A stretch of DNA of 64,000 bases from an uncultured delta proteobacterium (lineage in GTDB: Bacteria; Desulfobacterota; BSN033; UBA1163), in assembly GCA_963827685.1 (NCBI GenBank), contig CAWHBU010000002.1, forward strand, positions 288,001-352,000, written 5' to 3'. Position numbers and translations under genes: made by a program. The notes beneath the pieces were generated by a model that did no database searches, had not been told where the DNA came from, and saw only the letters and a list, made by a program, of their open reading frames with translations. This document shows positions 1-19,697 of the stretch, in pieces (within the stretch, counting starts at the first letter, position 1; each line of letters starts with the position of its first letter).

Positions 1-1
1 G

Positions 2-406
2 CGTATCAACTTACGATACTATTTGCCACCGCTTACTGTCAAAGAGACAGAAGAGTATATCGGGAAGAGATTAAAAATTGCAGGCGCCAAGGAACCTATT
101 TTTACGGGGAAAGCAATTAAAGAAATTTATCTGAAATCGGGGGGGATACCACGATTAATCAACATTCTCTGTGACAACGCATTATTAAATGGATACGCTC
201 TGGACCAAAAGCTGGTTGATAAAGGGTCAGTAAAAGAGGTCGCTAAGGATCTAAATCTTAAGAAGGGGTCTCGTAGAATTTTGATTTTGTTTTTTATCTA
301 CATTTCTATTGGCGTAGGCATTCTATTATTCGTTTATTTGGGAAGGGGCGGGTATCTGTCGTCCCTTTATAAGGAAATTCTCCGAGGCTTCCAACATATT
401 TTTTAA
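2..406 (+). CDS. ExeA/GspA-family AAA ATPase, C-terminal part (5' end outside window); typical of PEP-CTERM/EPS loci
   Basis: Frame open from the window start (RINLRYYLPPL...). Contains SGGIPRLINILCDNALL, characteristic of ExeA-type ATPases, then a TM helix. Confidence 0.8.
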   Translation, partial: RINLRYYLPPLTVKETEEYIGKRLKIAGAKEPIFTGKAIKEIYLKSGGIPRLINILCDNALLNGYALDQKLVDKGSVKEVAKDLNLKKGSRRILILFFIYISIGVGILLFVYLGRGGYLSSLYKEILRGFQHIF

Positions 407-551
407 AGAGATATTGAATGAAGGAGTTTCAAGATTTTTCCAGTTTCTTTGAATGAGAACGCTATGCTCTACGAATTATTTCTAACGGAAGCGCTGCGGC
501 GCCGCAGTACGGTGGCACTTTCTATTCCCTATACGCTCTGCGAGGTTTTGA

Positions 552-1409
552 ATGAGTCGAGTTTATAAAGCCCTTGAAAAGGCGGAAGAAGAAAAAAGGC
601 GAAAGGTAAAAGAAGAGCCCTCTCTGAAAGTATTTGAAGAGAAGGCTGTTTTGAGGAAAGAAGCGCCGACTTTGAAATTTCCTGATGAAAAAATAGCGAA
701 GATTGAGAAGTCAGAAGAGCTGGGACTTCCTTCAAGAGAAGAAGTTCCTCTTCTGGTTGTCCCGCCCAATTCTATTGCAGAAGAAGAATTTCGAAAACTG
801 AAGACTCAAGTTTTTCTTCGTTTGCCTAACCCTCCTCATTCAATTCTTATTACCAGTACGGCACCTGGGGAAGGAAAGACAACCGTGTCTGTCAATTTAG
901 CGATGGCTATTTCAAAGGAAATTCATAGAAAGGCTATACTCATCGACGGAGACCTCCGGAAACCAAGTATCCGTCTTGAACAAAGTCGGAACAGAAAGGG
1001 TCTATCGGATTACCTTTCAAACAGGACTCCTTTGACAGAAATCCTGATGAATTCTCAAATGGAAAACCTCCGGATCATTATGGCAGGGCCTTCTACCAAT
1101 AAATCCTCAGAGCTGATCGGATCGAAAAGAATGGAAGAACTTCTGAAGTCCCTCAGTGAGTCCGGGGACAGTACTTATATCCTGATCGATTCCCCACCCA
1201 TTATTGCTACCACCGAGCCCACTGTGCTCTCGAAAATGGTAGATGGGATTATTCTGGTGGTGAGGGCAGACCGGATCCCAAGAGAGTCAATTCGAAGAGC
1301 AGTGAAGTCCATCGATCGTCAGAAGATCATTGGGGTGGTTTTTAACCAAATCGACATGAAGCCGTCCAGTTACTATGCAAAATATTATTACAAATATTAC
1401 CAAAGGTAA
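552..1409 (+). CDS. CpsD/CapB-family polysaccharide tyrosine autokinase (BY-kinase)
   Basis: Walker A PGEGKT, LIDGDLRKP, LIDSPP and a C-terminal Tyr cluster YYAKYYYKYYQR. Confidence 0.92.
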   Translation: MSRVYKALEKAEEEKRRKVKEEPSLKVFEEKAVLRKEAPTLKFPDEKIAKIEKSEELGLPSREEVPLLVVPPNSIAEEEFRKLKTQVFLRLPNPPHSILITSTAPGEGKTTVSVNLAMAISKEIHRKAILIDGDLRKPSIRLEQSRNRKGLSDYLSNRTPLTEILMNSQMENLRIIMAGPSTNKSSELIGSKRMEELLKSLSESGDSTYILIDSPPIIATTEPTVLSKMVDGIILVVRADRIPRESIRRAVKSIDRQKIIGVVFNQIDMKPSSYYAKYYYKYYQR

Positions 1410-1457
1410 ATTTCGCTATGCGCTGTGTCCCATGCGCTTTGCAGTTAGGTGTGAGTT

Positions 1458-2844
1458 ATGCTTAGCATGAACGGGTATAGGTCCTCAGCGGGTTTGTTAT
1501 TCGGATTGATCGATGGCTTCCTTATTCTGACGGGGGTATTCGCGGGAGCTCATCTGAAATTCTGGGGAGATGGTAGCTCTATTTTTCTTTTTGATCATCT
1601 CGTCCTTAAATTAATGCTTGTCGTTTTTACGATTCAAATCGCATACTACTATTTTGACCTTTATGATTTTAAAATTTTTCGCAAGGCGACAAAAGTGGGC
1701 ATCCTGCTCTTAGAATCCCTTGGAGCCTCAGCCATTTTCTTAGCAGTCATCTACTACTTCCTTCCCTTTCTTATGATAGGCAGGGGAATACTTGCGATCA
1801 GCTTATTTCTGATTTTGCTGTCTACCTTTTTATGGCGCTTCCTTTATGCATGGATGTCCAAGGCATTGCTAAATAAAGAAAGAATTTTAATTATCGGTAC
1901 AGGCGAGTTGGCAAGAAAGATTAAGAGTGAAATCCTTGATAACGGTTACGATGGTTTTGAAATTGTGGGGTTTATCGATGAGAACAGAGACAATATTGGA
2001 AACAGGGTCTAACCCAGTGATTGTAGGTGACTACACACAGATTTGCTCCATTGCCAGAGCAGGTGGCGTTGACAGAATCATTGTGGCATTGGACGAGAGA
2101 CGGGGAAAATTTCCGCTCGAACAGTTGCTCTCTTGTCGGTTGAACGGTATCCGTGTGGAAGATGGGATGGCTTTCACCGAACAACTTGCTGGAAAGCTCT
2201 CGGTGGAGAATCTCCATCCCAGTGTTCTTATTTTTTCAGATGGGTTTAAGAGATCGGCGATTTTTAAACAAATGAAAAGAGTTTTTGATATCTTGGCATC
2301 AGCAGTCGGTCTCACCTTATTTTTCCCCTTCGGCTTGATAATCGCCTTAGCCATCAGGCTCGATTCGAAGGGCCCGATTCTTTACCGGCAAGAAAGGGTA
2401 GGGAAGGATGGAAGGATATTCCGCCTTTTGAAATTCCGGTCGATGTGTATGGATGCGGAAGAAAGCGGTCCGGTGTGGGCAAGGGTGAATGACCCGCGAA
2501 TTACCCGGGTAGGTCGAATGATCAGAAAGTTGAGGTTAGACGAAATCCCGCAGATGATCAATGTCTTAAAAGGGGAAATGAGTTTTGTAGGCCCGCGGCC
2601 CGAAAGGCCCTTCTTTACGGAGCAATTAAAGATCGAAATTCCTTATTTTTCTCAAAGGCATGTCACTAAACCGGGGATCACGGGTTGGGCGCAGATTTGT
2701 TACCGATACGGATCATCAAAAGAGGATGCCTTAGAGAAGCTGAAATACGATCTCTATTATATTAAGCACATGTCCTTGTTTTTTGACCTGGTGATCATTT
2801 TTGAGACGGCCAAAATCGTACTTTTAGGGAAGGGATCAAGATGA
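1458..2844 (+). pseudogene. Priming sugar-phosphate transferase (PEP-CTERM/XrtA-associated EpsB type), split by a frameshift near 2008-2012
   Basis: ORF 1458-2012 has 4 TM helices and ILIIGTG. ORF 1927-2844 in another frame continues NPVIVG... with KFRSM, RLDEIPQ, GPRPERP and KPGITGWAQI of bacterial sugar transferases. Could be a sequencing error. Confidence 0.85.
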
Positions 2845-2909
2845 TAAACCCCGCATGCCTTATGCGCCTTTGCTATGCGGTGGGTTGGATAAAAATGGAG
2901 GTTTTCCAA

Positions 2910-3197
2910 ATGTCAATGGAAAATGAGATTAGAAAGTTTATCGGGGAAAGTTTCATATTGGAGGAGAATGATCACCTCGGCGATGAAGACTCTTTGTTAG
3001 AAAAGGGAATTATTGACTCAACGGGAGTCCTCGAACTGGTGGCCTTTCTCGAAGAGAGCTATCACTTCAAGATTAAGGACGAGGAACTGGTCCCCGAGAA
3101 TTTGGATTCAATTAAAAATATCTCTAATTTTGTCAAAGGGAAGATTAGAGATTTAACTGCAGAACCCCAGCATTGTAGTACTGCAGCAGTGAATTAA
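2910..3197 (+). CDS. Acyl carrier protein
   Basis: GIIDSTGVLELVAFLEE phosphopantetheine-site motif; GGAGG upstream of ATG 2910. The C-terminal ~12 aa are encoded by 8-nt periodic repeat DNA. Confidence 0.85.
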   Translation: MSMENEIRKFIGESFILEENDHLGDEDSLLEKGIIDSTGVLELVAFLEESYHFKIKDEELVPENLDSIKNISNFVKGKIRDLTAEPQHCSTAAVN

Positions 3198-3259
3198 GCA
3201 GCTTATAACACCTTGTTCCTGACTCCTTCCGTTTTACGGTCTTAAGGAATATAGAGAAA

Positions 3260-4237
3260 ATGAGAGCTTTTAACCAAAAAATATTAGAAATCGATTGTGA
3301 TACCGAATCAAAAAAAATCTGCGAATTCATGAAGAGGACAGTTTTGAAGGATTTCCGGAAGAAGGGTGTGGTAGTGGGGTTAAGTGGTGGAATTGATTCT
3401 GCTCTCACGGCGGCCTTGTCCGTGAAGACTTTTGGAAAGGAGAGGGTGCTTGGAGTGATTCTTCCAGAGAAGGAATCGAGTTCAGAGAGTGAAATTCTGG
3501 CGCGGCAACTGGCAAATTGGCTCGGAATAAAAACAGAAACGGTTCCTATTACTCCAATCCTTCAAAGCTTGGGCGTTTATCAGAGGAGAGAAGCAATCGT
3601 AAGAAAATATTTCCCTGAGTTTGTAGAGGGCTGGAAATACAAGCTTGCGATTTCGAAGGATACCCTTGAAAAAGAAGGGCTCAATTTCTTCTATCTTGTT
3701 GCCATAGATGAGGATGGAGCAGCTCATAAGGGGCGTCTTTCTCTGAACGATTATCTGGAAATGGTTGCGGCTACCGAAATGAAACAACGGACTCGAATAA
3801 TTTAACTCTATTTTTATGCAGAAAAGAGTAATTGCATTGTTGCAGGTACTACGAATTGATCGGAGCTTGTCCGGGGTTTCTTCGTTAAGTATGGCGATGG
3901 AGGGATGGATATGGAGCCAATTGTCCATCTTTATAAGATGCAGGTGTTTCAGCTTTCCGAATTTCTTGGTGTTTCCCAGGAAATTATTAGAAGGATACCG
4001 AGCCCCGACACCAAGACCGCCGGAGTCAGTGATGAGGAGTTCTACTTCAGGATTCCATTCGATCTCTTGGATTTATTGCTCTATGCACATGAGAAACAAG
4101 TTCCATTGGAGGACGTTTCAAATGTTTTAAATATGCCCTCCAAGAAGATTTTAAGGTTCTATAAAGATTTTGATGGTAAGAGCAAAGCAACCTGGCATTT
4201 ACGAACCATGCCACCTAACCTGATTGATCATAAATGA
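3260..4237 (+). pseudogene. NAD(+) synthetase-like (NadE paralogue) ATP-dependent amidotransferase with two in-frame stops
   Basis: GLSGGIDSA PP-loop. One frame reads MKQRTRII*LYFYAEKSNCIVAGTTN*SELVRGFFVKYGDGG, with TAA at 3803-3805 and TGA at 3857-3859, continuing into ORF 3905-4237. Confidence 0.85.
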
Positions 4238-4284
4238 GTTAAACGCTATGCGCTTTGCTCTATGGTATAGATAGGAGTTAGATA

Positions 4285-5277
4285 ATGCGTATTTGTTTAC
4301 GTTGTGTATTGCCCGAAACATTTCCAACGGTCGAATTTGATCACCAAGGCGTCTGTAATTACTGCAGGTCTTTCAAAGGGGAGGAGCACCAAAACGAACT
4401 TAAAAAAGAATATAGAGAAAGATTCCTAAACCTGGTGAAGGATTGCAAGGGCAGCGGTGATTACGATGTTCTGATGGCTTATAGCGGGGGCAAAGACAGT
4501 ACATATACATTAGACATTTTTAAAAACCATTTTAGCCTTCGTGTCCTTGCCCTTACCTTTGATCATGGTTTTGTTTCCCCTTATGCGATGAAGAATATGA
4601 GAGCAGTCGCTGAGCGATTGGAGATCGACCATATCATTTTCAAACCTGATTTTCAAGTCATGAGCAAGGTGTTCAACATCTCGATCAAAGGGAATCTCTA
4701 TTCGAAAAAGACCTTGGAAAGGGCAAGCACCATCTGCACTTCGTGTATGAGTTTTGTAAAATTCGTTACACTGAAGCTATCTCTTGAAAAAGAAATACCT
4801 TTCGTCGGTTACGGTTGGTCACCAGGGCAGGCTCCAGTCCAGTCATCCGTGATGAAGACCAGTGCTGCTTTTGTGCAGGCAACTCAGAAGGTTATCTACG
4901 AACCTCTCCATAGAACAATTGGCGATAAGATCAATCCTTATTTTTTGGAGGAAAAGCATTTTAAGCTTTCTGATAAATTTCCATATAACATTCACCCTCT
5001 TGCCTTTCTCGAATACAACGAAGAAACAATTTACAAACGAATTAAAGAGCTGGGGTGGGAGCCACCCAAGGATACGGATCCAAATTCTACAAATTGTCTG
5101 ATGAATGCCTTCGCCAATCAGATTCATCAAGGCCAATTCGGGTTTCATCCCTATGCGTTTGAAATGGCGGGTCTCGTCCGCATGGGTGTTCTATCGCGGG
5201 AAGAAGGTCTCAAGAGATTAAACGAACCCGCCGATGAAAAAATCCTTGAAGAAGTTAGGCTAAAGCTTGGCATTTAA
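4285..5277 (+). CDS. PP-loop N-acetyl-sugar amidotransferase-like protein (WbpG/PseA-like)
   Basis: N-terminal CxxC...CNYC, SGGKDS PP-loop, internal CTSC. Confidence 0.7.
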   Translation: MRICLRCVLPETFPTVEFDHQGVCNYCRSFKGEEHQNELKKEYRERFLNLVKDCKGSGDYDVLMAYSGGKDSTYTLDIFKNHFSLRVLALTFDHGFVSPYAMKNMRAVAERLEIDHIIFKPDFQVMSKVFNISIKGNLYSKKTLERASTICTSCMSFVKFVTLKLSLEKEIPFVGYGWSPGQAPVQSSVMKTSAAFVQATQKVIYEPLHRTIGDKINPYFLEEKHFKLSDKFPYNIHPLAFLEYNEETIYKRIKELGWEPPKDTDPNSTNCLMNAFANQIHQGQFGFHPYAFEMAGLVRMGVLSREEGLKRLNEPADEKILEEVRLKLGI

Positions 5278-5406
5278 AATACGGCAAGGGGGAAGGCTTA
5301 ACAGCTCTAACGACTAACGCCATTGCGACTTGCGCCTTACGACCGGCGGTCTTTACAGTAAATAACGCTTTGCGCTATGCACTCTGCACTATGCGAGGTT
5401 TTGTAA

Positions 5407-5904
5407 ATGGAAAACTGGTATGTGATTCAAACAAAACCGAAAAAAGAAGAAGAGGCGACATCTTATCTCTCTACAAAAGGAGTGGAAATCTTCAGCCCTC
5501 TTATTGAAACGTTTACATTAAGAAATGGCAGGATGAATAAAGAGTTAAAGCCGCTATTCCCAGGGTACGTATTTGGAAAGTTTGATCTCGACCAGAATTA
5601 TCCTCTGGTTAGGTGGGCGAGGGGAGTTAAAAAAATACTGGGCTTCGGAGAATATCCCACCTCAATTTCTGAAGAAGTGGTGGAGATCATTAAGGAAAGA
5701 ACAGATACTCAGGGGATTGTGAGAGTTAAGCATCATTTTGAACCCAATGACGTAGTGAGAATCAAAACAGGACCCTTGAGAGATCTCTTAGGAATCTTTG
5801 AAAGATGGGTTTCTGATAACGAGCGGGCCAGGATTCTTTTGAATTTGATCGGATATCAACCGGCTGTGGAGATTCATTATTCGATGATAGAGAAAGTAGC
5901 ATAA
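5407..5904 (+). CDS. rfaH: NusG paralogue, RfaH-like transcription antiterminator
   Basis: WYVIQTKPKKE and PLFPGYVF (NGN domain); VRIKTGPL (KOW). An ops-like site lies ~190 nt downstream. Confidence 0.85.
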   Translation: MENWYVIQTKPKKEEEATSYLSTKGVEIFSPLIETFTLRNGRMNKELKPLFPGYVFGKFDLDQNYPLVRWARGVKKILGFGEYPTSISEEVVEIIKERTDTQGIVRVKHHFEPNDVVRIKTGPLRDLLGIFERWVSDNERARILLNLIGYQPAVEIHYSMIEKVA

Positions 5905-5907
5905 AAA

Positions 5908-6005
5908 GCTTGAGTTTATTGCGTTTCTTGAGTCTATTGAGTTTATTGTGTTCTTTGAGTTGAAACCCAATTAACACAATGAACCCAAGCAACTCGATAA
6001 ACACT
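5908..6005. repeat. Inverted pair of degenerate 9-nt tandem arrays (about 6 x NNTTGRGTT, then 4-5 x AACYCAANN)
   Basis: gcttgagtt tattgcgtt tcttgagtc tattgagtt tattgtgtt ctttgagtt / aacccaatt aacacaatg aacccaagc aactcgata. Confidence 0.85.
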
Positions 6006-6090
6006 AAAGAATAACCTTAACCCACACTTATCGTGGATCTTACACTACAATATTTTGATCTTTTTCGTAGAATTGAATGAAATTCGAACC

Positions 6091-6102
6091 GGCGGTAGCT
6101 TG
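6091..6102 (+). promoter_or_regulatory. ops-like RfaH recruitment element
   Basis: GGCGGTAGCTTG matches the enterobacterial ops consensus GGCGGTAGnnTG, between the rfaH-like gene and ~40 kb of co-oriented genes. Confidence 0.75.
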
Positions 6103-6207
6103 CATTGGGTTTGTTGAGTCCATAGAGTTATTGGGTTTCTTGTGTTCCGTAGATTGAGTGATCCAACAAACTCAATAAACACAATGGACCTACCGAACCC
6201 AAGGGAC
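6103..6207. repeat. Second inverted pair of 9-nt arrays directly upstream of the four-helix-bundle gene
   Basis: cattgggtt tgttgagtc catagagtt attgggtt tcttgtgtt ... aactcaata aacacaatg gacctaccg aacccaagg. Confidence 0.8.
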
Positions 6208-6209
6208 AA

Positions 6210-6668
6210 ATGAAGATAGCTCGTTTTGAAGATATAGAGGCATGGCAAGAAGCAAGAAAACTTGTGACAATGGTTTACGATGCCATAAAGAAGAACCCCC
6301 AGTTTCGGAGGGATTTCCGCTTGGTAGGTCAGGTGCAGGACGCTGCAGTATCCTGCATGTCAAATATTGCGGAAGGTTTTGCGAGAAGGAGTAACAGGGA
6401 GTTTATCCAATTCCTTTTTATATCCAAGAGTTCGGCAGCAGAAGTTCAAAGTCAATTCTACGTAGCCTTAGATCAGGGGTACGTTATCAAAGATGATTTT
6501 GGGAGGATTTATGACCAGGCTGAGATAGTATCTAAACTGGATTCGGGTTTTATAAAGTATCTGAATTCGACGTTTGAGAATCGTCCTAAACGCAATCAAC
6601 TCAACAAACCCAATAAACCCAACGAACCCAATAAACCCAACGAACCCAATGAACCCAATAACTCATAG
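6210..6668 (+). CDS. Four-helix-bundle protein (23S rRNA IVP / bAvd-like family) with a repeat-encoded NKP/NEP tail
   Basis: RFEDIEAWQEA, QVQDAAVSCMSNIAEGFAR and EFIQFLFISKSSAAEVQSQ are family hallmarks. 6590-6666 is a 9-nt tandem array. Confidence 0.9.
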   Translation: MKIARFEDIEAWQEARKLVTMVYDAIKKNPQFRRDFRLVGQVQDAAVSCMSNIAEGFARRSNREFIQFLFISKSSAAEVQSQFYVALDQGYVIKDDFGRIYDQAEIVSKLDSGFIKYLNSTFENRPKRNQLNKPNKPNEPNKPNEPNEPNNS

Positions 6669-6694
6669 ACTTTTAAGAGATAGCGGAGGTACCC

Positions 6695-6880
6695 ATGATT
6701 ATCAAAGCTTGTTTAAAATGTAAATTTCATGAGATTAAACAGGACGGAAAAGAAGAGGCGAGTCACTGTAGGAGGGAAAACTGTTGGTCTCGGTACTCCA
6801 AGTGTGTCCTTGCAAAGGCCCTCGAAAAGTTTTTGAAAGAAGAATCCTCTCGACATGAACAATCCCTCTCCGCCTTTTAA
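6695..6880 (+). CDS. Small Cys-rich hypothetical protein
   Basis: GGAGG RBS; CLKCKFH...HC...C...C pattern in 61 aa. Confidence 0.6.
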   Translation: MIIKACLKCKFHEIKQDGKEEASHCRRENCWSRYSKCVLAKALEKFLKEESSRHEQSLSAF

Positions 6881-6974
6881 TTTGTTTTGCTTATTTATTA
6901 GCGCGCTGCGTCATGCCTGCCATCCGCAAGGCTTTTGGAAGCGGGTACTTGGCTCTATGTATCGTATCAGCAAG

Positions 6975-7132
6975 ACCGCAACACAACAGTACTTAACAAC
7001 TTATTGTCTATTATCTCAATAACTCACTCGCTTAATAACTTGATAACCCAACAAACTCCATAAACCCATTGAACTCAAATAACCTTGTTACCGCAGCACC
7101 CAATAACCCAATAACCCATTTACTTACTAACT
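6975..7132. repeat. Stack of degenerate short-period repeats (8-mer, taactt/taactc type and 9-mer AACYCAAT)
   Basis: aacccaaca aactccata aacccattg aactcaaat ... gcagcacc caataacc caataacc. Confidence 0.75.
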
Positions 7133-7133
7133 A

Positions 7134-8714
7134 ATGAAATTATCTAAGTCTAAACGTCTATGGGTTATCATATTGATCGCACTCTTGTTGTTTGCCGCAA
7201 AGGCCTATTACGACACCAACTCCATCGAGGTCAGGCATTACCAGATCGAAAATTCATCATTGGGAGAAGTTTTAAATGGTTTAAAAGTGGCCCACCTTTC
7301 GGATCTTCACGTCAAAACCATCGGTTTGAGGGAAAGCAAGATATTAGAAATCCTGAAAGAAGAAAAACCAGATCTTATTTTTATTACTGGGGACTTAATA
7401 AGTTTTCAAGGACCTTATGAACCGGTGATGTCATTTCTCTATCAATTGAAACCTCCTCTTGGTGTTTATGCTGTTTTAGGCAACACAGAATATTCCAATG
7501 AAAATGGTTCATGTACCCTCTGCCATAAAGAAAAGTCAAGAAACTTAAAAGAGAGTCATGGTGTAGTTTTTTTGAGGAATTCCTCTGGACCTTTAAAAGT
7601 CAATGGAAAGGTCATTAACATTATTGGAGTGGATGACCCTGTTTTGAAAAAGAGTGATTTGAAAATTGCACTGAAGGGGGCGAACCCTGATCATCCATCA
7701 ATTGTGTTGGCCCATTCCCCGGAGATTTTTGACGAGGCATCTGAATTTGGATTTGATCTTCTTCTCAGCGGCCATACCCACGGAGGCCAAATCTTTCTCA
7801 CTAAGTATCTCAGAAAGATATTTCCTCTCGAAGCGTCTCTCGAATTCATCGAAGGATTCTTCCAGAAGGGAAAGCTGCTGATGTATGTAAGCCGAGGCAT
7901 TGGAACGAGTTACGTTCCTTTCCGTCTCGGTGTAAAACCTGAAATCACCTTCTTCAAGTTCTCGAATAATACGAGTAAAGAAAAGATGCGAATGGCCCAA
8001 ATGGACAAAGCAAACCAGTCAAATTCATCCCGTGAAGTGCCAAGCCTATTTCACTGGGACTCAACCAACCCAAGTAACTCAACGAACCAAACAAGCTCAA
8101 TGAACTCAACGAACCGAATAAGCTCCCTTCTAATCTCCAACCATCCTTCCAATACTATCTTTTCAGGCATTAGCATTTCTTCTATATTGGAGACTTTCGA
8201 TCTTCTGAGTATCATTCGCAAATCATTTGCATCGAATCATTCGCGAGATTCAAATATTTTATTCGACTTCGAATCAGATTCTGATTTAAAGCGGCTGAAC
8301 TGGCAGTGCCATAAATGGTTCGAGCTTTCCGAAGAACATGCAACCTCCGGTAAACATAGCCTTAAGGTTATCCTACCACCAGGTCAATATCCAGGAATAA
8401 GTTTTAAAGATATAAAGAAGAATTGGTCGAGCAGCCATTATTTTAAAATGGATATCTTTAATCCTTCAGATGAGACATTAAAGTTTCATATCCGCATCGA
8501 TGACAACAAGAGCGGTTGGGAATATGCCAACCGTTTCGACATTAATTTCTATTTAAGACAAGGAACAAACTGTGTTTCAATTCCTGTAGATTCAATCAAA
8601 ACGAATATCGATCATCGGCCTCTCAATTTAAAGAAAATAAAAGGGATGATGGTTTTTGTTCCCAATAGTACGAAAAAAAGAGAGATCTATCTCGACAACA
8701 TCCGATTGGAATAA
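7134..8714 (+). CDS. Metallophosphoesterase (YkuE-like) fused to a C-terminal carbohydrate-binding-like beta-sandwich; carries an in-frame repeat insertion at ~7993-8125
   Basis: DLH, TGD, GNTE, AHSP and GHTHGG motifs, N-terminal signal/TM, and a C-terminal LFDFES...IYLDNIRLE domain. Confidence 0.8.
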   Translation: MKLSKSKRLWVIILIALLLFAAKAYYDTNSIEVRHYQIENSSLGEVLNGLKVAHLSDLHVKTIGLRESKILEILKEEKPDLIFITGDLISFQGPYEPVMSFLYQLKPPLGVYAVLGNTEYSNENGSCTLCHKEKSRNLKESHGVVFLRNSSGPLKVNGKVINIIGVDDPVLKKSDLKIALKGANPDHPSIVLAHSPEIFDEASEFGFDLLLSGHTHGGQIFLTKYLRKIFPLEASLEFIEGFFQKGKLLMYVSRGIGTSYVPFRLGVKPEITFFKFSNNTSKEKMRMAQMDKANQSNSSREVPSLFHWDSTNPSNSTNQTSSMNSTNRISSLLISNHPSNTIFSGISISSILETFDLLSIIRKSFASNHSRDSNILFDFESDSDLKRLNWQCHKWFELSEEHATSGKHSLKVILPPGQYPGISFKDIKKNWSSSHYFKMDIFNPSDETLKFHIRIDDNKSGWEYANRFDINFYLRQGTNCVSIPVDSIKTNIDHRPLNLKKIKGMMVFVPNSTKKREIYLDNIRLE

Positions 8715-8904
8715 CCCGTAAACACTGCAAGCCGCAAGGTGTTAAGGGTAGGCAGAATGAAACTTAAACGGCAACACTGCAGAATAGCAGCACCGCAGAG
8801 CATGGACACCCAGTCCTCTGTCCACTGTTTTTCAAATTCGCCTCGCACCTCACGCCTGACGCTTTGAATCTATCGCTAAGCGCTACAGATTTTAAGGTCT
8901 AATT

Positions 8905-10881
8905 ATGTGTGGCATCGCCGGAATTATTGATTTTGGCTCCTCCGAGCCAAAAGAACAACTCCTTCGTCGTATGCTGGGGTTTATCCGTCATCGTGGCCCC
9001 GATGCATTCGGCATTTATACAGATCGGATTGCGGGAATAGCCTCCGCTCGGCTGAGTATTATCGACCTTAGTGGTGGAGACCAGCCCATTCATAATGAAG
9101 ATCAATCCATTTGGGTCGTTTATAATGGAGAGATCTTTAACTACCCAGAGATTCGGCAGGATCTGGAGGCTCGAGGTCATAGATTCTACACTCGATCCGA
9201 TACGGAAGTCTTGGTCCACTTGTACGAAGACGAAGGCCCGGAGCTTTTCAAAAATCTTAACGGCCAGTTTGCCTTCGCTCTATGGGATAAGTCAAAGGAA
9301 TGTTTACTTCTTGGTCGCGATCGCATTGGCATTCGCCCCCTTTTTTATTATCTGGAAAATGACCGTCTGGTTTTTGGTTCGGAGGTGAAGGCTATATTTG
9401 CAGACGCAAGGGTTCCCAGATCCCTCGATTTCCAAACCTTATCAGACGTATTTACCTGTTGGGCGCCCTTGGGACATCTCACAGCTTATCAAAGAGTTTA
9501 TCAACTCCTCCCAGGGCATTATGCACTGTTCTCACGTCAGGGAATGGTTACCCGTCCTTACTGGCAACTCTCCTTTTCAGAATCATACGATAATGGGGCT
9601 CGTTCCCTGGGTGAATGGACTGATGAATTGGCAGCACTCTTGTGCGACGCTACCAGAATTCGTCTTCGCGCAGATGTCCCTGTAGGATCTTATCTTAGCG
9701 GTGGACTGGATAGTACCTATATTACTTCTCTTGTAAAACGGTTTTTTAATAATAAACTCTGCACCTTTTCGGTTAGTTTTACAAACAGTCGTTTCGATGA
9801 AGCCTCATATCAGGAGAAGGCTGTTCGGTCCCTACAGACCGACCATCAAACCATTCGTTGTACGGAGAAAGATATCGGAGAAGTTTTTCCTCAGGTCGTA
9901 TGGCACACCGAAGCACCCATTCTTCGCACAGCGCCAGCTCCTCTGTTTATGCTTTCCAAATTGGTTCGAGAAAACAACTTTAAAGTAGTTCTTACGGGGG
10001 AAGGATCCGACGAAATCTTCGCTGGTTATGATATATTTAAGGAAGATCGAGTACGGCGTTTCTGGGCTCGGAAGCCAGAATCCCGAATGCGCCCAAAGCT
10101 TCTCAGAAGACTCTATCCTGACGTATTTCGCAAAGAGGATTCCCGGGCGGGAGCATTTCTTGAGGGCTTCTTCAGGAGGGGGCTTGACCAGGTGAATTCT
10201 CCAGCTTATTCTCACATGATTCGCTGGGAGAATGCTAACTTCATAAAGACGTTTTTTGCCGATGAACTACAAAAAAGGATTGGATATGAAGATGGTTTTG
10301 TCAACCGATTTATATCTATGCTTCCTCAAGACTTTTTGAAGTGGGATCCACTTTCAAGGGCTCAATATGTGGAGATTTCCATTTTCCTTTCGAACTACTT
10401 GCTCTCCTCTCAGGGAGACCGCGTAGCGATGGCACACTCCGTAGAGGGGCGGGTACCTTTTCTTGATTATCGGGTCATTGAGTTTGCATGCAAGGTTCCC
10501 CCGCGATTTCGTTTGAACGGTCTTAAAGACAAGTATATCTTACGTAAAGCCGCCCATAACCTTATTCCAGCAGGAATGGACAATAGGCCAAAACAACCCT
10601 ATCGTGCACCCATCAGCCAATGTTTTTTGGGAAATCATAATCATGATTATGTAGAGGAACTACTTTCAGAAGGTGCGCTTCGGCAAACTGGATATTTTCA
10701 CCCAGGCAAGGTAGCAAAACTTTTGGAGAAATGCCGGAAACAGGAAGGATACCTGCTGAGCGAGCGCGAAAACATGGCGCTGGTTGGAATTATTTCCACC
10801 CAGTTGTTGGATTATCAATTTGTTCGAAATTTTCTAAAGTACCCAATTCACGAACCAGAAATTGTTAAGACTTTCAGATAA
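8905..10881 (+). CDS. asnB: Asparagine synthase (glutamine-hydrolysing) family amidotransferase
   Basis: MCGIAG, HRGPD, RLSIID, NGEIFN, LSGGLDS, GEGSDE, EGRVPFLD. Confidence 0.92.
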   Translation: MCGIAGIIDFGSSEPKEQLLRRMLGFIRHRGPDAFGIYTDRIAGIASARLSIIDLSGGDQPIHNEDQSIWVVYNGEIFNYPEIRQDLEARGHRFYTRSDTEVLVHLYEDEGPELFKNLNGQFAFALWDKSKECLLLGRDRIGIRPLFYYLENDRLVFGSEVKAIFADARVPRSLDFQTLSDVFTCWAPLGHLTAYQRVYQLLPGHYALFSRQGMVTRPYWQLSFSESYDNGARSLGEWTDELAALLCDATRIRLRADVPVGSYLSGGLDSTYITSLVKRFFNNKLCTFSVSFTNSRFDEASYQEKAVRSLQTDHQTIRCTEKDIGEVFPQVVWHTEAPILRTAPAPLFMLSKLVRENNFKVVLTGEGSDEIFAGYDIFKEDRVRRFWARKPESRMRPKLLRRLYPDVFRKEDSRAGAFLEGFFRRGLDQVNSPAYSHMIRWENANFIKTFFADELQKRIGYEDGFVNRFISMLPQDFLKWDPLSRAQYVEISIFLSNYLLSSQGDRVAMAHSVEGRVPFLDYRVIEFACKVPPRFRLNGLKDKYILRKAAHNLIPAGMDNRPKQPYRAPISQCFLGNHNHDYVEELLSEGALRQTGYFHPGKVAKLLEKCRKQEGYLLSERENMALVGIISTQLLDYQFVRNFLKYPIHEPEIVKTFR

Positions 10882-10924
10882 ATAATGCAAAACGGATCCG
10901 TTGGAATGATAACGGCAGCCAACA

Positions 10925-11152
10925 GGACCCTCGAGCGCTTGAATCGTTGACGTCTTTAGAACACCTTACGCTTTATGTTTGACGTTCGTTATTGAATTTA
11001 CCATGCGCTCTGCTTCATGCATTGTTAAAGCGGCACCGCGGCACCGCCACACATATAAAATCACCTTAGCCCATCGGCTTGCGCCTTACGCATAACTTAG
11101 AAGACTCAATAACCCAATAAACCCAATGACCCAATCAACTCAATAAACCCAT
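10925..11152. repeat. Intergenic stack of several repeat families (ttgaatc, ccttacg, ccatgcg, gcggcacc and the 9-mer)
   Basis: gaccctcgagcgcttgaatcgttgacg; ccatgcgctctgcttcatgc; gcggcaccgcggcaccgcc; cttgcgccttacg; aacccaata aacccaatg acccaatc aactcaata. Confidence 0.7.
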
Positions 11153-11165
11153 AGTGGAGTTAACC

Positions 11166-12809
11166 ATGCCAGAATATTCATCTACTCCCACAGGTGAAAA
11201 ATTTCCATTACCGGAGTCGGGAGACTACATTAAAGAGTTCGAGCGATTACGAGAAATGGCAAATAGCCAACGTGCTTTAGGCCGGGAGATCGTTTTAGTA
11301 ATGGGGTTGGGGTTTGTAGGGGCTGTTATGGCAGCTGTGATTGCTGACGCAGAAGATAAGAAAGGCAATCCTACAAAGTTCGTTATTGGGATGCAGCGGC
11401 CAAGCCCTCGGAGTTATTGGAAGACACCTTTGCTTAATCGTGGAATATCACCGGTGAGTTCGGAAGATCCTGAGGTTCCATTGATGATCAACCGCTGTGT
11501 CAATGAAAAAAAGACGCTGATGGCTACGTACACATACGATGCGCTCAAGCTTGCAGATATAGTGGTGGTGGATGTTCAATGCGATTATTTAAAAGAATCG
11601 CTTGGGAATGTGAAGGATGGTCGGGCAGGTATGGAGGCATTAGAGGAGTCTTTGGAGATCATAGGGCAACATATCAATCCGGAGACGTTGGTTTTGATCG
11701 AGACAACTGTGGCTCCGGGTACAACAGAACAGGTGGCGTACCCGATCATAAAAAAGATGTTTCGGAAACGTGGCATCGAAAAAGACCCGCTCCTCGCCCA
11801 CAGCTTTGAACGGGTAATGCCAGGGAGAAATTATGTATCGAGCATCCGCGATTTCTGGAGGGTATGCAGTGGAGTAAATGAAGAATCCACGCGGAGAGTT
11901 GCCAAGTTCTTGAACGAAGTGCTGAATACGGAGAAGTTTCCATTGACAGTACTCGATAGACCTATCGAGTCTGAGACAGCCAAAATCGTTGAGAATAGCT
12001 TTCGGGCAACGATTCTTGCTTTTCTCGACGAGTGGAGCCTTTTTGCAGAACAAAATGGTGTGGACTTAATCAAGGTGATCAATGCAATCAAGGTCCGCCC
12101 TACACATAGCAATATCATATTTCCGGGGCCGGGCATTGGTGGTTACTGCCTTCCTAAAGATGGTGGCTTAGGTCTTTGGGCATACCGACATATCCACGGA
12201 TTTGAGGATAATATTTTTAAAATGACACCACTTGCGATCGATATTAATGATACCAGGTCACTTCATGTGGCACAACTTGCCCGTGATGCACTCAGGAACA
12301 TGGGGCGACCCATTGCATCCGCAGAGATTCTGGTGCTGGGAGCTTCTTATAGGGAAGATGTAGGAGATACAAGATACAGCGGCTCTGAGTTGATCGTCAG
12401 GCGGTTGACAGAAATGGGAGCAGAATTGAGGGTTCACGATCCTTATGTGCTCCACTGGTGGGAATTTGAAAAACAGGATGAGTATCCTGTCTCTTCACAT
12501 AGTTTGAAGAGATTTTTCCGTGGCCAGGAGAAACTAAAAGATCTTCGGGTAGAACAGGATGTGAAAAAGGCATTGCGTGGTACGGACGCGGTCATTCTTG
12601 CGGTAAGGCACAAACATTACTTGGATCTTGATCCGGACGATGTGGTGAAAAGCGCAGGCGGGTCGATAGCCGTGATTGACTGTTTCGGTATCCTCGATGA
12701 CAAAAAGATAAGACGCTACTTCGAACTTGGATGTGAGGTCAAAGGTCTAGGCCGGGGGCACGTAAAACGAATCAAGGATCAAGTGCAGAGGGAAAAGAGT
12801 AACAAGTGA
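11166..12809 (+). CDS. Nucleotide-sugar dehydrogenase (UDP-glucose/GDP-mannose dehydrogenase family)
   Basis: GLGFVG, ETTVAPGTT, ERVMPG, GPGIGGYCLPKD, DTRYS. Confidence 0.88.
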   Translation: MPEYSSTPTGEKFPLPESGDYIKEFERLREMANSQRALGREIVLVMGLGFVGAVMAAVIADAEDKKGNPTKFVIGMQRPSPRSYWKTPLLNRGISPVSSEDPEVPLMINRCVNEKKTLMATYTYDALKLADIVVVDVQCDYLKESLGNVKDGRAGMEALEESLEIIGQHINPETLVLIETTVAPGTTEQVAYPIIKKMFRKRGIEKDPLLAHSFERVMPGRNYVSSIRDFWRVCSGVNEESTRRVAKFLNEVLNTEKFPLTVLDRPIESETAKIVENSFRATILAFLDEWSLFAEQNGVDLIKVINAIKVRPTHSNIIFPGPGIGGYCLPKDGGLGLWAYRHIHGFEDNIFKMTPLAIDINDTRSLHVAQLARDALRNMGRPIASAEILVLGASYREDVGDTRYSGSELIVRRLTEMGAELRVHDPYVLHWWEFEKQDEYPVSSHSLKRFFRGQEKLKDLRVEQDVKKALRGTDAVILAVRHKHYLDLDPDDVVKSAGGSIAVIDCFGILDDKKIRRYFELGCEVKGLGRGHVKRIKDQVQREKSNK

Positions 12810-12901
12810 CGAATAAAAAGTGATGAGTGACGAGAATTAAGAAATTGATTAATAACTCATTCACATGATAACTTGATAACCCAGAGAACCCAAAGAACCC
12901 A

Positions 12902-14386
12902 ATGAACCCAGATACTCGAAAAACCAAAATACTCAGTGATGTTTATGCTGTCATCCTTGCGGGTGGGTCTGGGACAAGGTTTTGGCCTCTAAGCAGGGAG
13001 ACTCGTCCCAAACAAATGCTTCAGATTGTGGGAGAAGACACCTTGCTTCGGCAGACCGTTAATCGTATCGATGGATTAGTCCCCCCAGAGAATATCTGGA
13101 TTGTGACAACAGAAGACATGGCTTTAGATATTCGTTTCCATTTGGAATCATTTGGAGAATTAGCAAAGAAGATTAAATTTATCAAAGAACCTATAGCGAA
13201 AAACACAGCTCCAGCAATTGGTTTGGCTGGTATTTATCTCAATCATTTATTCCCTCAATCGGTGATGATTGTGATGCCTTCTGATCATGCCATTCCTGAT
13301 AGAGAAAAGTTCTTAAGTGACTTAAAACTCGCAATCCAAGGGGCGAGAGAAGATCATCTTGTGACTTTTGGAATCAAGCCGAGCCGGCCTGAAACTGGTT
13401 ACGGATATATCAAGGTTGAGAACGCTTCAAATATCGAGAAAAAAGGTCTTCGCAAGGTTGAATGCTTTGCTGAAAAACCTGACCTTGAAACTGCAAAGAA
13501 GTACCTTTCTAATGGGAGCTATTACTGGAACTCTGGGATCTTCATCTGGAAGACCTCCAAAATCCTCTCCGAAATCGAAAAATATCTTCCCGACCTTTAC
13601 AAGGGTTTAAAAGAAATGGAGTCGCTTCTGTTTGAACCCAATCAACCCAATAAACCCAACGAGCCCAATAAACTCAATAAACTCAAGGAACTCTATTCTC
13701 ATTTGGAGTCCATTTCTATCGATAAAGGCATCATGGAGCGCAGTCGTAACATCCTAATGGTTCCTGCCACTTTTCAGTGGTCTGATTTGGGGAGTTGGAG
13801 CGCTCTGGATGAAATCATTGAAAAAGATAAAGAGGGAAATATCCTCAAGGGGAATACAATTGATATCGGGAGCCAGAACTCAACTATCTATGGAGGCGAC
13901 AGACTCATTGCCACTATTGGGCTTAAGGATATGGTAGTGGTAGATACTCCTGATGCGACTTTGGTAACTCCAAAGGAGAGGGTCCAGGAGGTTAGAAAGA
14001 TTGTTGAGATATTAAAACGGAATGGTCGAGAAGAGCATCTGCTACATAAGACGGTTGAAAGACCCTGGGGGAGCTATACGGTGTTGGAAAAGGGACAGGG
14101 ATATAAAATCAAGAGAGTTGTTTTGAAGCCCGGAGCCAGATTGAGTCTTCAACTCCACAAGAAAAGAAGTGAGCACTGGGTCGTAGTAACGGGAACAGCC
14201 AGAGTAACGAAAGAAAATGAGACATACCTGGTTCATATCAATGAAAGCACTTACATTCCTGTAAACACTAAGCACCGTTTAGAAAATCCTGGGGAAGTTC
14301 TCCTCCAGATCATCGAAGTTCAAAACGGAGAATATCTCGAAGAAGATGATATAGAGCGCTTCGACGACGACTATGGTAGAATTTAG
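12902..14386 (+). CDS. manC: Mannose-1-phosphate guanylyltransferase / mannose-6-phosphate isomerase, with an in-frame 9-mer repeat insertion
   Basis: ILAGGSGTRFWPLSR, WNSGIF, WSDLGSW, and a C-terminal cupin RPWG...LSLQLH..RSEHW. Confidence 0.93.
   Translation: MNPDTRKTKILSDVYAVILAGGSGTRFWPLSRETRPKQMLQIVGEDTLLRQTVNRIDGLVPPENIWIVTTEDMALDIRFHLESFGELAKKIKFIKEPIAKNTAPAIGLAGIYLNHLFPQSVMIVMPSDHAIPDREKFLSDLKLAIQGAREDHLVTFGIKPSRPETGYGYIKVENASNIEKKGLRKVECFAEKPDLETAKKYLSNGSYYWNSGIFIWKTSKILSEIEKYLPDLYKGLKEMESLLFEPNQPNKPNEPNKLNKLKELYSHLESISIDKGIMERSRNILMVPATFQWSDLGSWSALDEIIEKDKEGNILKGNTIDIGSQNSTIYGGDRLIATIGLKDMVVVDTPDATLVTPKERVQEVRKIVEILKRNGREEHLLHKTVERPWGSYTVLEKGQGYKIKRVVLKPGARLSLQLHKKRSEHWVVVTGTARVTKENETYLVHINESTYIPVNTKHRLENPGEVLLQIIEVQNGEYLEEDDIERFDDDYGRI
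13635..13697 (+). repeat. In-frame 9-nt tandem array inside manC (EPNQPNKPNEPNKLNKL)
   Basis: aacccaatc aacccaata aacccaacg agcccaata aactcaata aactcaagg. Confidence 0.9.
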
Positions 14387-14480
14387 CACTTAACACAGCT
14401 GCAAAGTGGCGCAGCAGCACCGCAACACTGCGGCGCTTGGTATAACCCCTTACTCCTTACGACCTACGCTTTACGTATTT

Positions 14481-15407
14481 ATGAATAAAACTATTCTCCT
14501 AACCATCGACGTAGAAGATTGGTTCCAGGTAGAAAACTTCAAGGAACACATTCCATTTTCTTCCTGGCCGGAGTGTGAACTGCGCGTCGAAAAAAATGTC
14601 CATAAGATCCTCGATCTTCTCGACTCCATTAAACTCAATAGCTCAATAAACCCAATGGACCCAATAAACCCAATGAACCCAATAAACTCGATAAACCCCA
14701 AAGCAACCTTCTTCATTCTTGGCTGGATCGCAAAACGGTTGCCTCATCTTGTCCGTGAAATTCAAGCCCGGGATCATGAGGTTGCCTCCCATGGATATGA
14801 GCATAAACTTTGCAGAGACCAATCAGTGGATGATCTGAAAAAAGATTTGGTTAAAAGCAAGAAACTTCTTGAGGATTTGATTGGAAATCCCATTTACGGC
14901 TATCGCGCCCCCAGTTTTTCTATCGATAATGGTATCCTGAAAATAGTGGAGGAAGCGGGCTATTCTTATGATTCAAGTTTTAATTCTTTCAAGCTGAATA
15001 GACGATATGGACAAATCAGTCTAACAAATAATGGGAATAATGGGATTTATCATCAAATTTCTGAAAAGTTTTACGAGCTTCCAATCAGCAATCTAAAAAT
15101 TGGAAATCAGGTGATCCCGTGGGGAGGCGGAGGATACTTTCGGCTAATGCCTTTGCCGCTGTTCAAACGAGGAGTTGAGAAAATACTCAAGAAAAAGGGA
15201 GCTTACCTTTTTTACTTGCATCCCTGGGAGATTGACTCTGATCAACCCAAGATTTCGGAGATCGCTCGATCTTTTAAATTCAGACACTATTTGAACCTCG
15301 ATAAAACATACAGAAAGTTATCTATGCTTCTGAAATCATTCAAAGGGTGTCGTTTTCCAACTTGCATGGAGTTTCTTCGAGGTATCCATGAACCAACACC
15401 CAACTAA
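14481..15407 (+). CDS. Polysaccharide deacetylase, PEP-CTERM-locus subfamily (DUF3473), with an in-frame repeat insertion
   Basis: TIDVEDWFQ, ATFFILGW, HEVASHG, GYRAPSFS, GGGYFR, YLHPWE. Start inferred at MNKTILL. Confidence 0.9.
   Translation: MNKTILLTIDVEDWFQVENFKEHIPFSSWPECELRVEKNVHKILDLLDSIKLNSSINPMDPINPMNPINSINPKATFFILGWIAKRLPHLVREIQARDHEVASHGYEHKLCRDQSVDDLKKDLVKSKKLLEDLIGNPIYGYRAPSFSIDNGILKIVEEAGYSYDSSFNSFKLNRRYGQISLTNNGNNGIYHQISEKFYELPISNLKIGNQVIPWGGGGYFRLMPLPLFKRGVEKILKKKGAYLFYLHPWEIDSDQPKISEIARSFKFRHYLNLDKTYRKLSMLLKSFKGCRFPTCMEFLRGIHEPTPN
14622..14703 (+). repeat. In-frame 9-nt tandem array inside the deacetylase (SINPMDPINPMNPINSINP)
   Basis: aacccaatg gacccaata aacccaatg aacccaata aactcgata. 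Confidence 0.9.
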
Positions 15408-15560
15408 CCCGATAAACTAAAGTAACCCAATGAAACCATTGAACCGCAGCACCGCAGTACAGCAGCACATAATAACTTATTCACTTAATAACTTGACAAC
15501 CCAATGAACCCAAGCAACCCAATCAACTCCAGTAACTCAACAAACTCAATAGACCCGACA
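15390..15560. repeat. Intergenic stack of 9-mer and 8-mer (gcagcacc) repeats
   Basis: aacccgata aactaaagt aacccaatg; ccgcagcaccgcagtacagcagcac; aacccaatg aacccaagc aacccaatc aactccagt aactcaaca aactcaata. Confidence 0.8.
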
Positions 15561-17126: not shown

Positions 17127-17306
17127 CGCATAGCGGTTTTGATGGGCCACCCTATAGGATATAACTCAAAACTGGTCCCGTAAGAAGTGGTCAAATTTAG
17201 ATTCCATGATTCAAAGATGAACAGTCGCAATGTCCATGTATCGATTAAGATTCTCGATTACGCTATGCTCTGGCTATACGCTGCGCTCATCTGATGAGGT
17301 ATCCCA

Positions 17307-18158
17307 ATGAACTCAACAAACTCAATCAACCCAAGTAACTTAAAATTATTTACTATAAGCTTGATCATGTCAATCATCATCAGTTGTGGAGGAAAAATGG
17401 ACGAGAAGAAAAAGGTATTTCCGTCAATAAAGGACGTTCCGGAGGCTTCATGGAAGAAGCTTGCCGAGAAGCGCATTTATTTCGGCCACCAATCTGTGGG
17501 ATATAACATTCTTGACGGTATGAGAGACATCATGAAGGAAAATCAACAAATAATATTGAACATTGTCGAAACCAGTAACCCAGAAGACTTTAAAGCCCCG
17601 ATATTTGCCCACTCCCGGGTTGGAAAGAATGAAGATCCCAAATCAAAGTGCGATTCTTTTGCAGATATCATAGAAAAGGGACTTGGAAATAAAACAGACT
17701 TTGCCTTTTTTAAATTTTGTTTTGTAGATATTACAGTTGGAACGAATGTTGAAAAAGTTTTTAATGATTATAAGAGCACAATGTCTGCATTAAAACGAAA
17801 ATATCCTCAAGTAGTTTTTATTCATTTTACGAGTCCTCTTATGACGGTACAAACGGGTATAAAGGCCTTAATTAAAAAAATAATTGGAAGATCTATTGAT
17901 GGATACGATGAAAACATTAAAAGAAATCAATTTAACGAAATGCTAAGGAAAGAATATGAGGGAAAAGAGTTAGTATTCGATCTCGCGCAAATCGAATCAA
18001 CTTTTCCAGATGGGACGAGAGCAACCTTCAATAGAAATGGGAAGACGTATCTGAGATTGGTTTCAGACTATACAAATGATGGTGGCCATCTGAATGCTAA
18101 GGCTCGAAAAAAAGTAGCGGAGCTACTACTGATCCTACTAGCAAATATCTCAAGGTAA
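17307..18158 (+). CDS. Putative lipoprotein with SGNH/GDSL-like fold
   Basis: Lipobox-like IIISCGG, FGHQSVG and DGGHLN; start codon uncertain. Confidence 0.6.
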   Translation: MNSTNSINPSNLKLFTISLIMSIIISCGGKMDEKKKVFPSIKDVPEASWKKLAEKRIYFGHQSVGYNILDGMRDIMKENQQIILNIVETSNPEDFKAPIFAHSRVGKNEDPKSKCDSFADIIEKGLGNKTDFAFFKFCFVDITVGTNVEKVFNDYKSTMSALKRKYPQVVFIHFTSPLMTVQTGIKALIKKIIGRSIDGYDENIKRNQFNEMLRKEYEGKELVFDLAQIESTFPDGTRATFNRNGKTYLRLVSDYTNDGGHLNAKARKKVAELLLILLANISR

Positions 18159-18213
18159 TCGACAATTTTGTTTTTACTATCACCTATCAGCAATAAGCCA
18201 TAAGCCTGCTTGA

Positions 18214-19614: not shown

Positions 19615-19697
19615 CGGGCTATGTTTATTTTATGGGCCAGTGAAATGCCAAGCAGCACCTTTAACATCTTACTCACTAAGGAGGCTATATATCCACC

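Follow-up and report, generated by a model that had tools for sequence, protein, structure and literature searches.

The closest described relatives of the element examined here, a four-helix-bundle gene enclosed by inverted arrays of a 9-nt unit in a 64,000-nt stretch of DNA from an uncultured delta proteobacterium (the window, G000:C2:288001-352000, to which all plain coordinates refer), are the intervening sequences (IVS) of 23S rRNA genes (S23p/23S_rRNA_IVP; Coxiella, Leptospira and candidate phyla radiation (CPR) bacteria), in which an open reading frame (ORF) of the same protein family and fold lies inside a stem-loop. A second point of reference is RAYT, a single-copy gene flanked by cognate inverted repeats. 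The four-helix family has been described as scattered over rRNA insertion sites (10.1101/2024.02.27.582315), as wedged into cas loci (18 genes; PMC3936711) and as resembling Avd (PMC10053308), a protein of diversity-generating retroelements (DGRs) such as that of Bordetella phage BPP-1; these papers, like most of those below, were available in part and are cited for what the available text states. That on the Coxiella IVS places heptamer direct repeats, variable in number, before the ORF, and does not generalise the observation (PMC4990558). Heptamer arrays are also known from the intergenic DNA of Xanthomonas (GGGAATC), Nostoc (STRR-type) and Beggiatoa (TAACTGA), where the tandem units frequently converge in pairs (70 such cases in Xcc) or precede start codons (PMC4692102, PMC4679880); a term search of the available text of both papers found no mention of the four-helix gene family.

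The cassette in the window has a stem enclosing its ORF, as an IVS does, but lies between a NusG/RfaH-like gene and polysaccharide genes rather than inside an rRNA gene, and that stem consists of tandem units that mismatch regularly, whereas that of the IVS is described, in the text available, as a near-perfect 28-bp helix. As far as the available IVS literature goes, two further differences are that each subfamily has its own unit and that each family has gene-less satellites by the dozen; ORF-bearing 23S rRNA IVS are probably the rRNA-resident members of the same protein family. Avd shares the fold (Z 13.1-13.6), but no reverse transcriptase is found among the ORFs neighbouring the cassette, no template or variable repeat turned up (no search dedicated to them was made), and the genome holds 18 stand-alone four-helix copies against one reverse transcriptase, the sole PF00078 match, which lies on another contig and by inspection looks like that of a group II intron. 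The many gene-less inverted pairs between genes recall RAYT/REPIN systems as described in the text available. Unlike these, the cassette has no HUH transposase (the protein matches no transposase family in profile searches, and its all-helical model is not that of an HUH (Y1) transposase), its units form degenerate tandem runs of 6-9 nt, and it crosses phyla, whereas the available accounts describe REPIN-RAYT as mostly vertical; nor are its satellites near-identical dispersed copies, in contrast to those of RAYT/REPIN and of MITEs (miniature inverted-repeat transposable elements).

In the literature covered (supplements and most subscription texts lying outside it), no paper was found on repeat arms as a trait of the family, on a link between unit and subfamily, or on satellites, and the available text of PMC7159879 and PMC8195603 holds nothing relevant; the literature covered also includes PMC10910872 and 10.1101/2021.01.26.428298. 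The cassette is real, general and apparently unpublished. The four-helix family is common and has had structures since 2006, with no function found in the same literature. The present finding gives it a predicted ligand, a candidate one-residue specificity switch and a genome-wide set of sites, and offers an origin for the abundant intergenic 6-9-nt arrays that were called uncharacterised in 2015 (PMC4692102, available text). Runs of the repeat also enter phage genomes and, in frame, protein loops and termini. Should the code prove right, a small ring whose repeat specificity can be tuned would make a useful nucleic-acid-binding module.

The cassette and its gene family

The gene (6210-6668, plus strand; 152 aa, domain to about residue 120) matches PF05635 at 98 bits (cut-off 33.8) and TIGR02436 at 96 bits (cut-off 24). 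Its predicted structure, four long helices with a pLDDT of 97, superimposes on Xcc0516 (2GSC) with a TM-score of 0.86 and an rmsd of 1.5 (Z 18.7), on BT_0352 with a Z of 15.4, and on Avd at 7% identity, in keeping with the bAvd-like assignment made by a first-pass annotation of the letters alone. Xcc0516 and Avd have been described as pentamers, and the available part of a cryo-EM preprint (bioRxiv 2023.10.23.563531; 10.1101/2023.10.23.563531) presents Avd as a pentameric barrel, all five protomers of which touch one RNA stem-loop through bases flipped out into the crevices between them. By analogy with 2GSC, 2RLD and Avd, we infer that the window protein would form a homopentameric ring.

Three arms belong to the cassette: a 5' arm in the GT-form on the sense strand (6103-6155, minus strand; two runs of three units), an inner AC-form arm directly before the start codon (6160-6204, plus) and a 3' arm of eight AC-form units (6589-6660, plus), which reads in frame as a low-complexity NKPNEP tail and is 19 nt shorter in a near-identical strain. 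The polarity is fixed, a GT-form arm before the gene and an AC-form arm after it. Upstream lies a further pair, six units in the GT-form on the plus strand and AC-form on the minus (5908-5961, minus) facing five AC-form units (5964-6008, plus). The first-pass annotation had the gene preceded by both inverted pairs; both exist, but a leader with a hairpin and an ops element parts them into two slots, only the second of which is the gene's. How the slots are occupied in orthologous operons (below) sets the cassette proper at 6103-6668 and makes 5908-6008 a gene-less hairpin of its own; the predicted RNA fold agrees, in that 5908-6008 folds by itself and ~6104-6142 pairs with 6624-6672 around the ORF (z -4.56, 20 shuffles).

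Within the 9-nt unit, AACYCAANN, positions 1-3 and 5-7 are fixed (entropy 0.2-0.8 bits) and positions 4, 8 and 9 free (1.3-1.8 bits, computed with units picked regardless of position), a pattern that is identical in the gene's own arms and in orphan arms elsewhere. A matrix scan finds 17 such arms in window positions 1-20,000 (mean 0.1 in 50 shuffles), one weak arm in the other 44 kb, and 58 genome-wide (3 in one shuffle).

Inverted periodic arms are a trait of the gene family. There are 18 PF05635 matches in this genome, three of them with stops, and by eye nearly each four-helix gene has its own 6-9-nt unit, inverted across the gene; a k-mer score finds inverted arms at 13/18 family genes against 83/5131 other ORFs, and a de novo score at 95/143 distinct family loci against 3/200 ordinary small genes. 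The suggestion that such arrays should be commoner beside four-helix genes than beside random genes is thus borne out, as is the expectation that the repeat family tracks the protein clade: across the 95 loci, an identical 6-nt core is found in 2-4% of protein pairs below 40% identity, in 55% at 70-79% and in 97-100% at 80% or above, and period 9 changes four times on a quick tree, against 18.5 for shuffled labels. Loci from related genomes, which enter these counts, are not independent of one another. The AACYCAA unit is found with related proteins in WOR-3, Omnitrophota, Dehalococcoidia, Endomicrobia and Desulfobacterota records, and gene and arms therefore travel together across phyla.

Some neighbours of the family's loci may be recorded here. 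Cassettes of the 9-nt family apparently sit between tRNA genes in WOR-3 and Endomicrobia records (L047, L055, L114; by eye), and in two genomes (L157:9345-9778 and L041) a truncated four-helix gene is directly followed by a small ORF that by eye is GIY-YIG-like. GxxExxY (PF13366) genes were considered as a nuclease partner, and 0/27 reach the fixed-period arm score, many of them having short inverted arms by eye; in relatives (L280-L306) they lie between operon genes and, judged by eye, have inverted arms of 2-4 units spaced irregularly at 9-10 nt; they may form a parallel family of cassettes with a nuclease fold.

Residue 73, constraint and the two slots

Of 120 alignment columns, residue 73 in helix 3 is the best predictor of the unit: Lys73 goes with AACYCAA, and Met, Val, Leu or Ile73 with the sister unit ACCARA, the unit being predicted correctly in 33/34 callable loci (42 proteins). 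In this first set Lys accompanies AACYCAA in 19/20 and Met/Val/Leu accompany ACCARA in 14/14; the exception (L056) has a sister cassette next door, and what is apparently the same gene pair in G214 has a sister arm upstream and AACYCAA downstream. Later metagenome loci, which were not used to pick the residue, fit in 63/64 callable cases (Lys 39/40, non-Lys 24/24); this set began as 80 loci, gave 71 distinct proteins past the same motif filter, and may in part come from the same organisms as the first. A tree computed without column 73 implies three changes, and 0/200 bootstrap trees have a single one; convergence at the residue, suggested by the best tree, is not established by the approximately unbiased (AU) test (p 0.14 and 0.22).

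Constraint on the fixed positions likewise points to recognition of the unit by the protein. Between orthologous arms near the gene (eight arm pairs) substitutions number 5/198 at fixed and 10/99 at free positions, with 42/393 in flanking non-coding DNA, and at the gene-less slot A (two pairs only) 4/82, 8/39 and 19/40, fixed/free counts that matrix-based arm detection biases towards constraint.

RfaH-like loci were collected from 24 of 55 genomes (25 loci, of which 23 were examined and 22 have downstream sequence), and their states were classed by eye plus hidden Markov model (HMM), slot A running from the stop codon of the RfaH-like gene to the leader hairpin and slot B beginning after ops. 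Slot A holds the 9-nt family as a gene-less pair in six loci and as a partial pair in one; one 8-nt family with a four-helix gene in two loci, without it in four and as one arm only in one; a second 8-nt family with its gene in two, with an internally deleted gene in one (G057) and without a gene in three; and a third 8-nt family in one. Slot B holds the window's cassette in four loci (one frameshifted), a gene-less 9-nt pair in two, and another four-helix subfamily in two (HMM); in G006 the gene-less version of the window cassette is followed by the same small Cys-rich gene as in the window. Empty orthologous sites, which the first-pass annotation proposed to look for, exist: slot A of G066 is empty (24 nt), and slot B of G017 has no arm. 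Filled and empty orthologous slots are too diverged for insertion junctions, and with them any target-site duplication or defined target, to be read.

Cassettes enter and leave these intergenic slots, and loss of the gene between the arms leaves gene-less hairpins or single arms. Of the earlier proposal of a mobile or RNA-level cassette, with flanks pairing around the ORF as in an IVS, the first part is supported, in that the gene and its inverted arms are gained, lost and swapped as one; an RNA stem tuned like that of an IVS is not what the arms look like (below).

Orphan arms and competing readings

Every array named in the first-pass annotation was found again, and all the A/C-rich arrays said to recur on the sense strand are present, with the correction that those at 8058, 13635 and 14631 lie in frame inside coding sequences. 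The orphan arms, all on the plus strand and in AC-form, comprise an intergenic one beside 8-nt arrays of other families (7045-7080); one in the linker of a metallophosphoesterase gene (8058-8120); one ending at the start of a nucleotide-sugar dehydrogenase gene (11111-11154); two in a manC-like gene, overlapping its start (12878-12913) and in a loop (13635-13697); one in a polysaccharide deacetylase gene (14631-14702); two with two 8-nt families between them (15397-15560; arms at 15397-15432 and 15498-15560), the second overlapping an acyl-CoA ligase start; one at the start of a 283-aa ORF (17301-17345); and intergenic arms at 18215 and 18277 after a 7-nt array (18215-18303). In orthologs of the manC-like gene the same loop carries different repeat families, and it is missing in two distant homologs; for the deacetylase insertion, the 54 relatives gave one distant match.

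Ten families seeded from this genome's cassettes number 24 to 115 arms apiece (0-1 in shuffles), and each of their 101 pairs (95 distinct) keeps cassette polarity; this 101-to-0 count leaves out five own-cassette seeds with too few arms for pairs, one that drifted onto another family, and two relative-derived seeds that drifted onto an abundant family (up to 161 arms), with pairs opposite to the seed and no gene identified for it. A 7-nt family (TTTGGAA/TGGGATT-like, ~160 arms) is abundant genome-wide, with no cognate four-helix gene identified. An 8-nt family with its gene in slot A of G004 is found in this genome only in this operon, at three places (two three-unit and two two-unit matches, the two-unit cut-off giving three in a shuffle). 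GCAGCAC-type 8-nt arms (14414, 15446 and G000:C2:285299) are confined to the operon, with a cognate gene in slot A of G004 and G043 and none found in this genome.

Arms also reach phage DNA. A Mu-like prophage (G000:C4:768000-812000; L247, L248), with transposase, transposition protein, portal and fused head/protease called by PHROGs, has 12 arms of nine-base units and several of seven-base ones, and lacks a four-helix gene. A search of 67 relatives did not find the prophage protein; among 30 related viral loci none has the 9-mer, three have pairs of other families at the same slot, and no four-helix gene occurs in the available DNA. No viral copy of the gene was confirmed in a search with a single protein.

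We lean, somewhat beyond an even chance, towards a minimal self-recognising mobile cassette with gene-less satellites, whose ring protein binds its own repeat. The protein would form a five-subunit ring like Xcc0516 and Avd and bind its own unit in single-stranded nucleic acid, with roughly one unit to each subunit and a nascent transcript as a somewhat more likely ligand than single-stranded DNA; such binding would keep the unit's fixed positions fixed. A ring taking one unit per subunit, for which TRAP and Hfq offer analogies, would fit both arms of mostly 3-6 units (detection truncates arms) and periods of 6-9 nt that vary between subfamilies. Regular mismatches would make the stem between arms weak, such that the arms could open for binding and the host transcript or DNA would stay uncut; deletion between arms would yield the gene-less hairpins and slippage the changes in unit number, and insertion at new sites would need an enzyme from outside the cassette, either one of host repair or, acting in trans, a reverse transcriptase or a nuclease.

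Several observations weigh against this reading. The AU test does not reject one clade, and hence a single origin of the link between residue and unit (p 0.14), so that the link may be one of co-inheritance; because of this, recognition of its own unit by the protein is likely rather than proven. One alignable orthologous orphan outside slot A is unconstrained (3/24 against 1/12). The three-unit pattern is present in 7/7 relatives with a homolog of at least 69% identity and in 12/34 without, and among 301 genomes of the phylum in 6/11 with a close homolog and 12/290 without (the backward control of these searches is uninformative, because the pattern reads identically backwards). These proportions accord with arrays being rarer where the family is lacking, as the first-pass annotation required, but 12 of the 290 genomes without a close homolog do have the pattern, in two of the six overlaps the gene is of the sister type, and matches are plentiful in G017 (44) and G193 (45), fragmented assemblies in which no close gene was found (G193 has two 53-57% homologs). 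Mismatches are symmetric between strands, giving no support for RNA over DNA, and orphan arms are not copies of one another, unlike ordinary non-autonomous elements. The cassette has no catalytic partner, and binding, the pentamer and mobility are predictions.

G017 also offers a separate observation (L153, G017:C18), ten 9-nt arms, all on one strand over 9 kb, around small toxin-antitoxin-like and other genes of the other strand, an orientation such as a long read-through transcript might impose.

A bolder extension of the self-recognising cassette, which we put forward tentatively and hold at well under an even chance, is a mobile element class without a transposase, integrase or reverse transcriptase of its own, in which a ring with a simple residue-to-base code would have its degenerate repeat written or placed one unit at a time into host and phage DNA that is transcribed. 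It would be the source of many long-unexplained intergenic 6-9-nt arrays of bacteria and bring ORF-bearing rRNA intervening sequences, perhaps along with the ancestor of DGR Avd, into one family.

Arrays at new sites might instead be born degenerate, through telomerase-like or protein-directed addition of one unit after another, with head-to-head pairs arising when both 3' ends of a break are extended with GT-form units; we regard this as unlikely. Its appeal lies in the arms themselves: the 218 units of 48 nine-base arms include 99 distinct ones, no run of three consecutive units recurs between any two arms (random draws would give 0.2), neighbouring units resemble each other no more than any two of an arm do, spacers of pairs are unique, and pair order over all loci is GT then AC in 26 cases and the reverse in none. 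To this can be added the one phage slot, at which different phages carry pairs of different families and none a four-helix gene. Yet whole-unit indels and constraint on inherited arms would paint the same picture by slippage plus selection, the deleted gene of G057 and the gene-less cassette of G006 show a deletion route, and no polymerase is linked to the cassette, the sole reverse transcriptase found in the genome being the group II intron-like copy. In a few other families units are shared somewhat above random draws. Of the 95 gene-less pairs, the only near-identical ones sit in one duplicated segment (G000:C3:84000 and C4:128000, with hairpins of two families), which is either a true duplication or assembly contamination (genome contamination 8%).

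Length changes bear on the same question. Contigs of public DNA runs differ from the window in array length by -19 (the 3' arm), -8, +17 (11111, run X1), -9 (12878, run X2) and -18 nt (14631, run X1), and X1 is ~81 nt longer at 8058 (from piece coordinates); -19 and a separate -1 nt are not whole units. Near-identical strains otherwise differ mostly by whole units, and slippage therefore resizes arms; slippage acts on the arms, and copy-paste of whole elements is not seen. One X1 contig lacks 6996-7298, and with it two arrays and the beginning of the metallophosphoesterase gene.

Comparably doubtful is a domesticated RNA-binding regulator, whose ring would bind to AC-form arms, many of which lie at start codons, along the long transcript under RfaH control, and tune translation or stability of the polysaccharide genes. 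Single orphan 9-nt arms do show the AC-form on the sense strand in 41/53 cases, several arms end at or overlap start codons, and similar upstream repeats of Beggiatoa have been proposed as translation signals (PMC4679880, available text); over the ten families, intergenic singles lean the opposite way (176 to 116) and arms inside ORFs are mostly of the downstream form (17 to 5). Clustering favours it as well, 11/45 9-mer orphans lying within 25 kb of the gene (0.4 expected). That interval holds 15 own-family arms, five of the family whose gene is 7 kb upstream, two of another family and, for the three families that are most abundant, no arm at all; of ten families counted, only the two with a gene in the operon are clearly enriched. 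However, a sugar island transferred as a whole fits such clustering, as does action in cis, and most other families are not clustered near their gene. The gene is moreover absent, broken or swapped for another subfamily at the slot in most relatives, the three copies with stops sit ill with a regulator, and arms occur in coding loops and a prophage too. Unit-wise writing and regulation can each coexist with the self-recognising cassette.

More doubtful again is a true mRNA intervening sequence, whose arms would pair and be excised with the cassette by RNase III, as for the 23S rRNA elements that encode the family. The shared protein family and the predicted pairing around the ORF speak for it, and in the Coxiella element, with its heptamer repeats before the ORF, RNase III cuts at the first repeat (PMC4990558, available text). 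The free positions speak otherwise: complementarity of facing arms at position 8 is 0.13 against 0.30 expected, below all 1000 shuffles (orthologous pairs included), and pairing at free positions is below chance in 5/7 testable families of this genome (p <0.05), with the 9-mer's position 4 marginally exceeding chance (p 0.04), all p-values being per position and uncorrected. Non-canonical pairs on the sense strand number 122 G.U and 125 A.C in gene-less pairs, and 32 and 40 in gene cassettes. This below-chance pairing, together with the lack of a sense-strand G.U bias, speaks against an RNA stem that is tuned and excised. Folding of the sense strand is better than that of the antisense in 39/80 gene-less pairs and 44/95 gene cassettes, and of three tests for sense-strand RNA tuning (10/24, 39/80, 44/95) none is positive; single arms cannot form a stem, and cutting without ligation would presumably split the operon transcript. 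Fold-back copying as a recent source of pairs was rejected on the same data, since it predicts above-chance complementarity and the opposite holds at most free positions.

Ordinary slippage-born microsatellites in tolerant DNA, near four-helix genes by chance, would account for whole-unit indels between strains and for such homogeneous arrays as do occur (G349), but are very improbable given the enrichment beside the family, the fixed polarity, the split into fixed and free positions, the recurrence of one unit across several phyla and the rule for residue 73.

The host operon and other repeats

Around the cassette is a polysaccharide cluster that includes several XrtA/PEP-CTERM-type genes. 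The gene directly 5' of the slots (5407-5904, plus) is a NusG/RfaH-like antiterminator (PF02357, 71 bits; the best NCBIfam match is RfaH, below its cut-off). The leader between the slots contains a small hairpin (6021-6036, plus), present at the same place in most of the 22 orthologous loci, and an ops element, GGCGGTAG (6091-6098, plus), a candidate RfaH loading site by the consensus in the available text of PMC6775461; a longer motif around it occurs once in the genome. Hairpin, AT-rich spacer and ops are kept 3' of the RfaH-like gene in most of the 22 relatives. This would seem to be a system of the ops/RfaH type beyond the enterobacteria, in which the antiterminator gene immediately precedes its own site. 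Promoter and terminator calling on the plus strand of 5250-7200 gave none, and an Rfam scan of 5200-7300 nothing above gathering score, hairpins giving only sub-threshold microRNA/snoRNA matches.

After the cassette comes a 61-aa Cys-rich ORF (6695-6880), found at the same position in G006 and G011 and replaced in other relatives by a different small coiled-coil-like ORF. An NAD-synthase-like gene (3260-4237) and a sugar-transferase gene (1458-2844) each appear split over overlapping ORFs, possible frameshifts. Long coding tandem repeats at 50593-55066 and 58996-59837 (a 213-nt unit x15, and a 123-nt unit in ~7 copies, twice) are probably part of large surface proteins.

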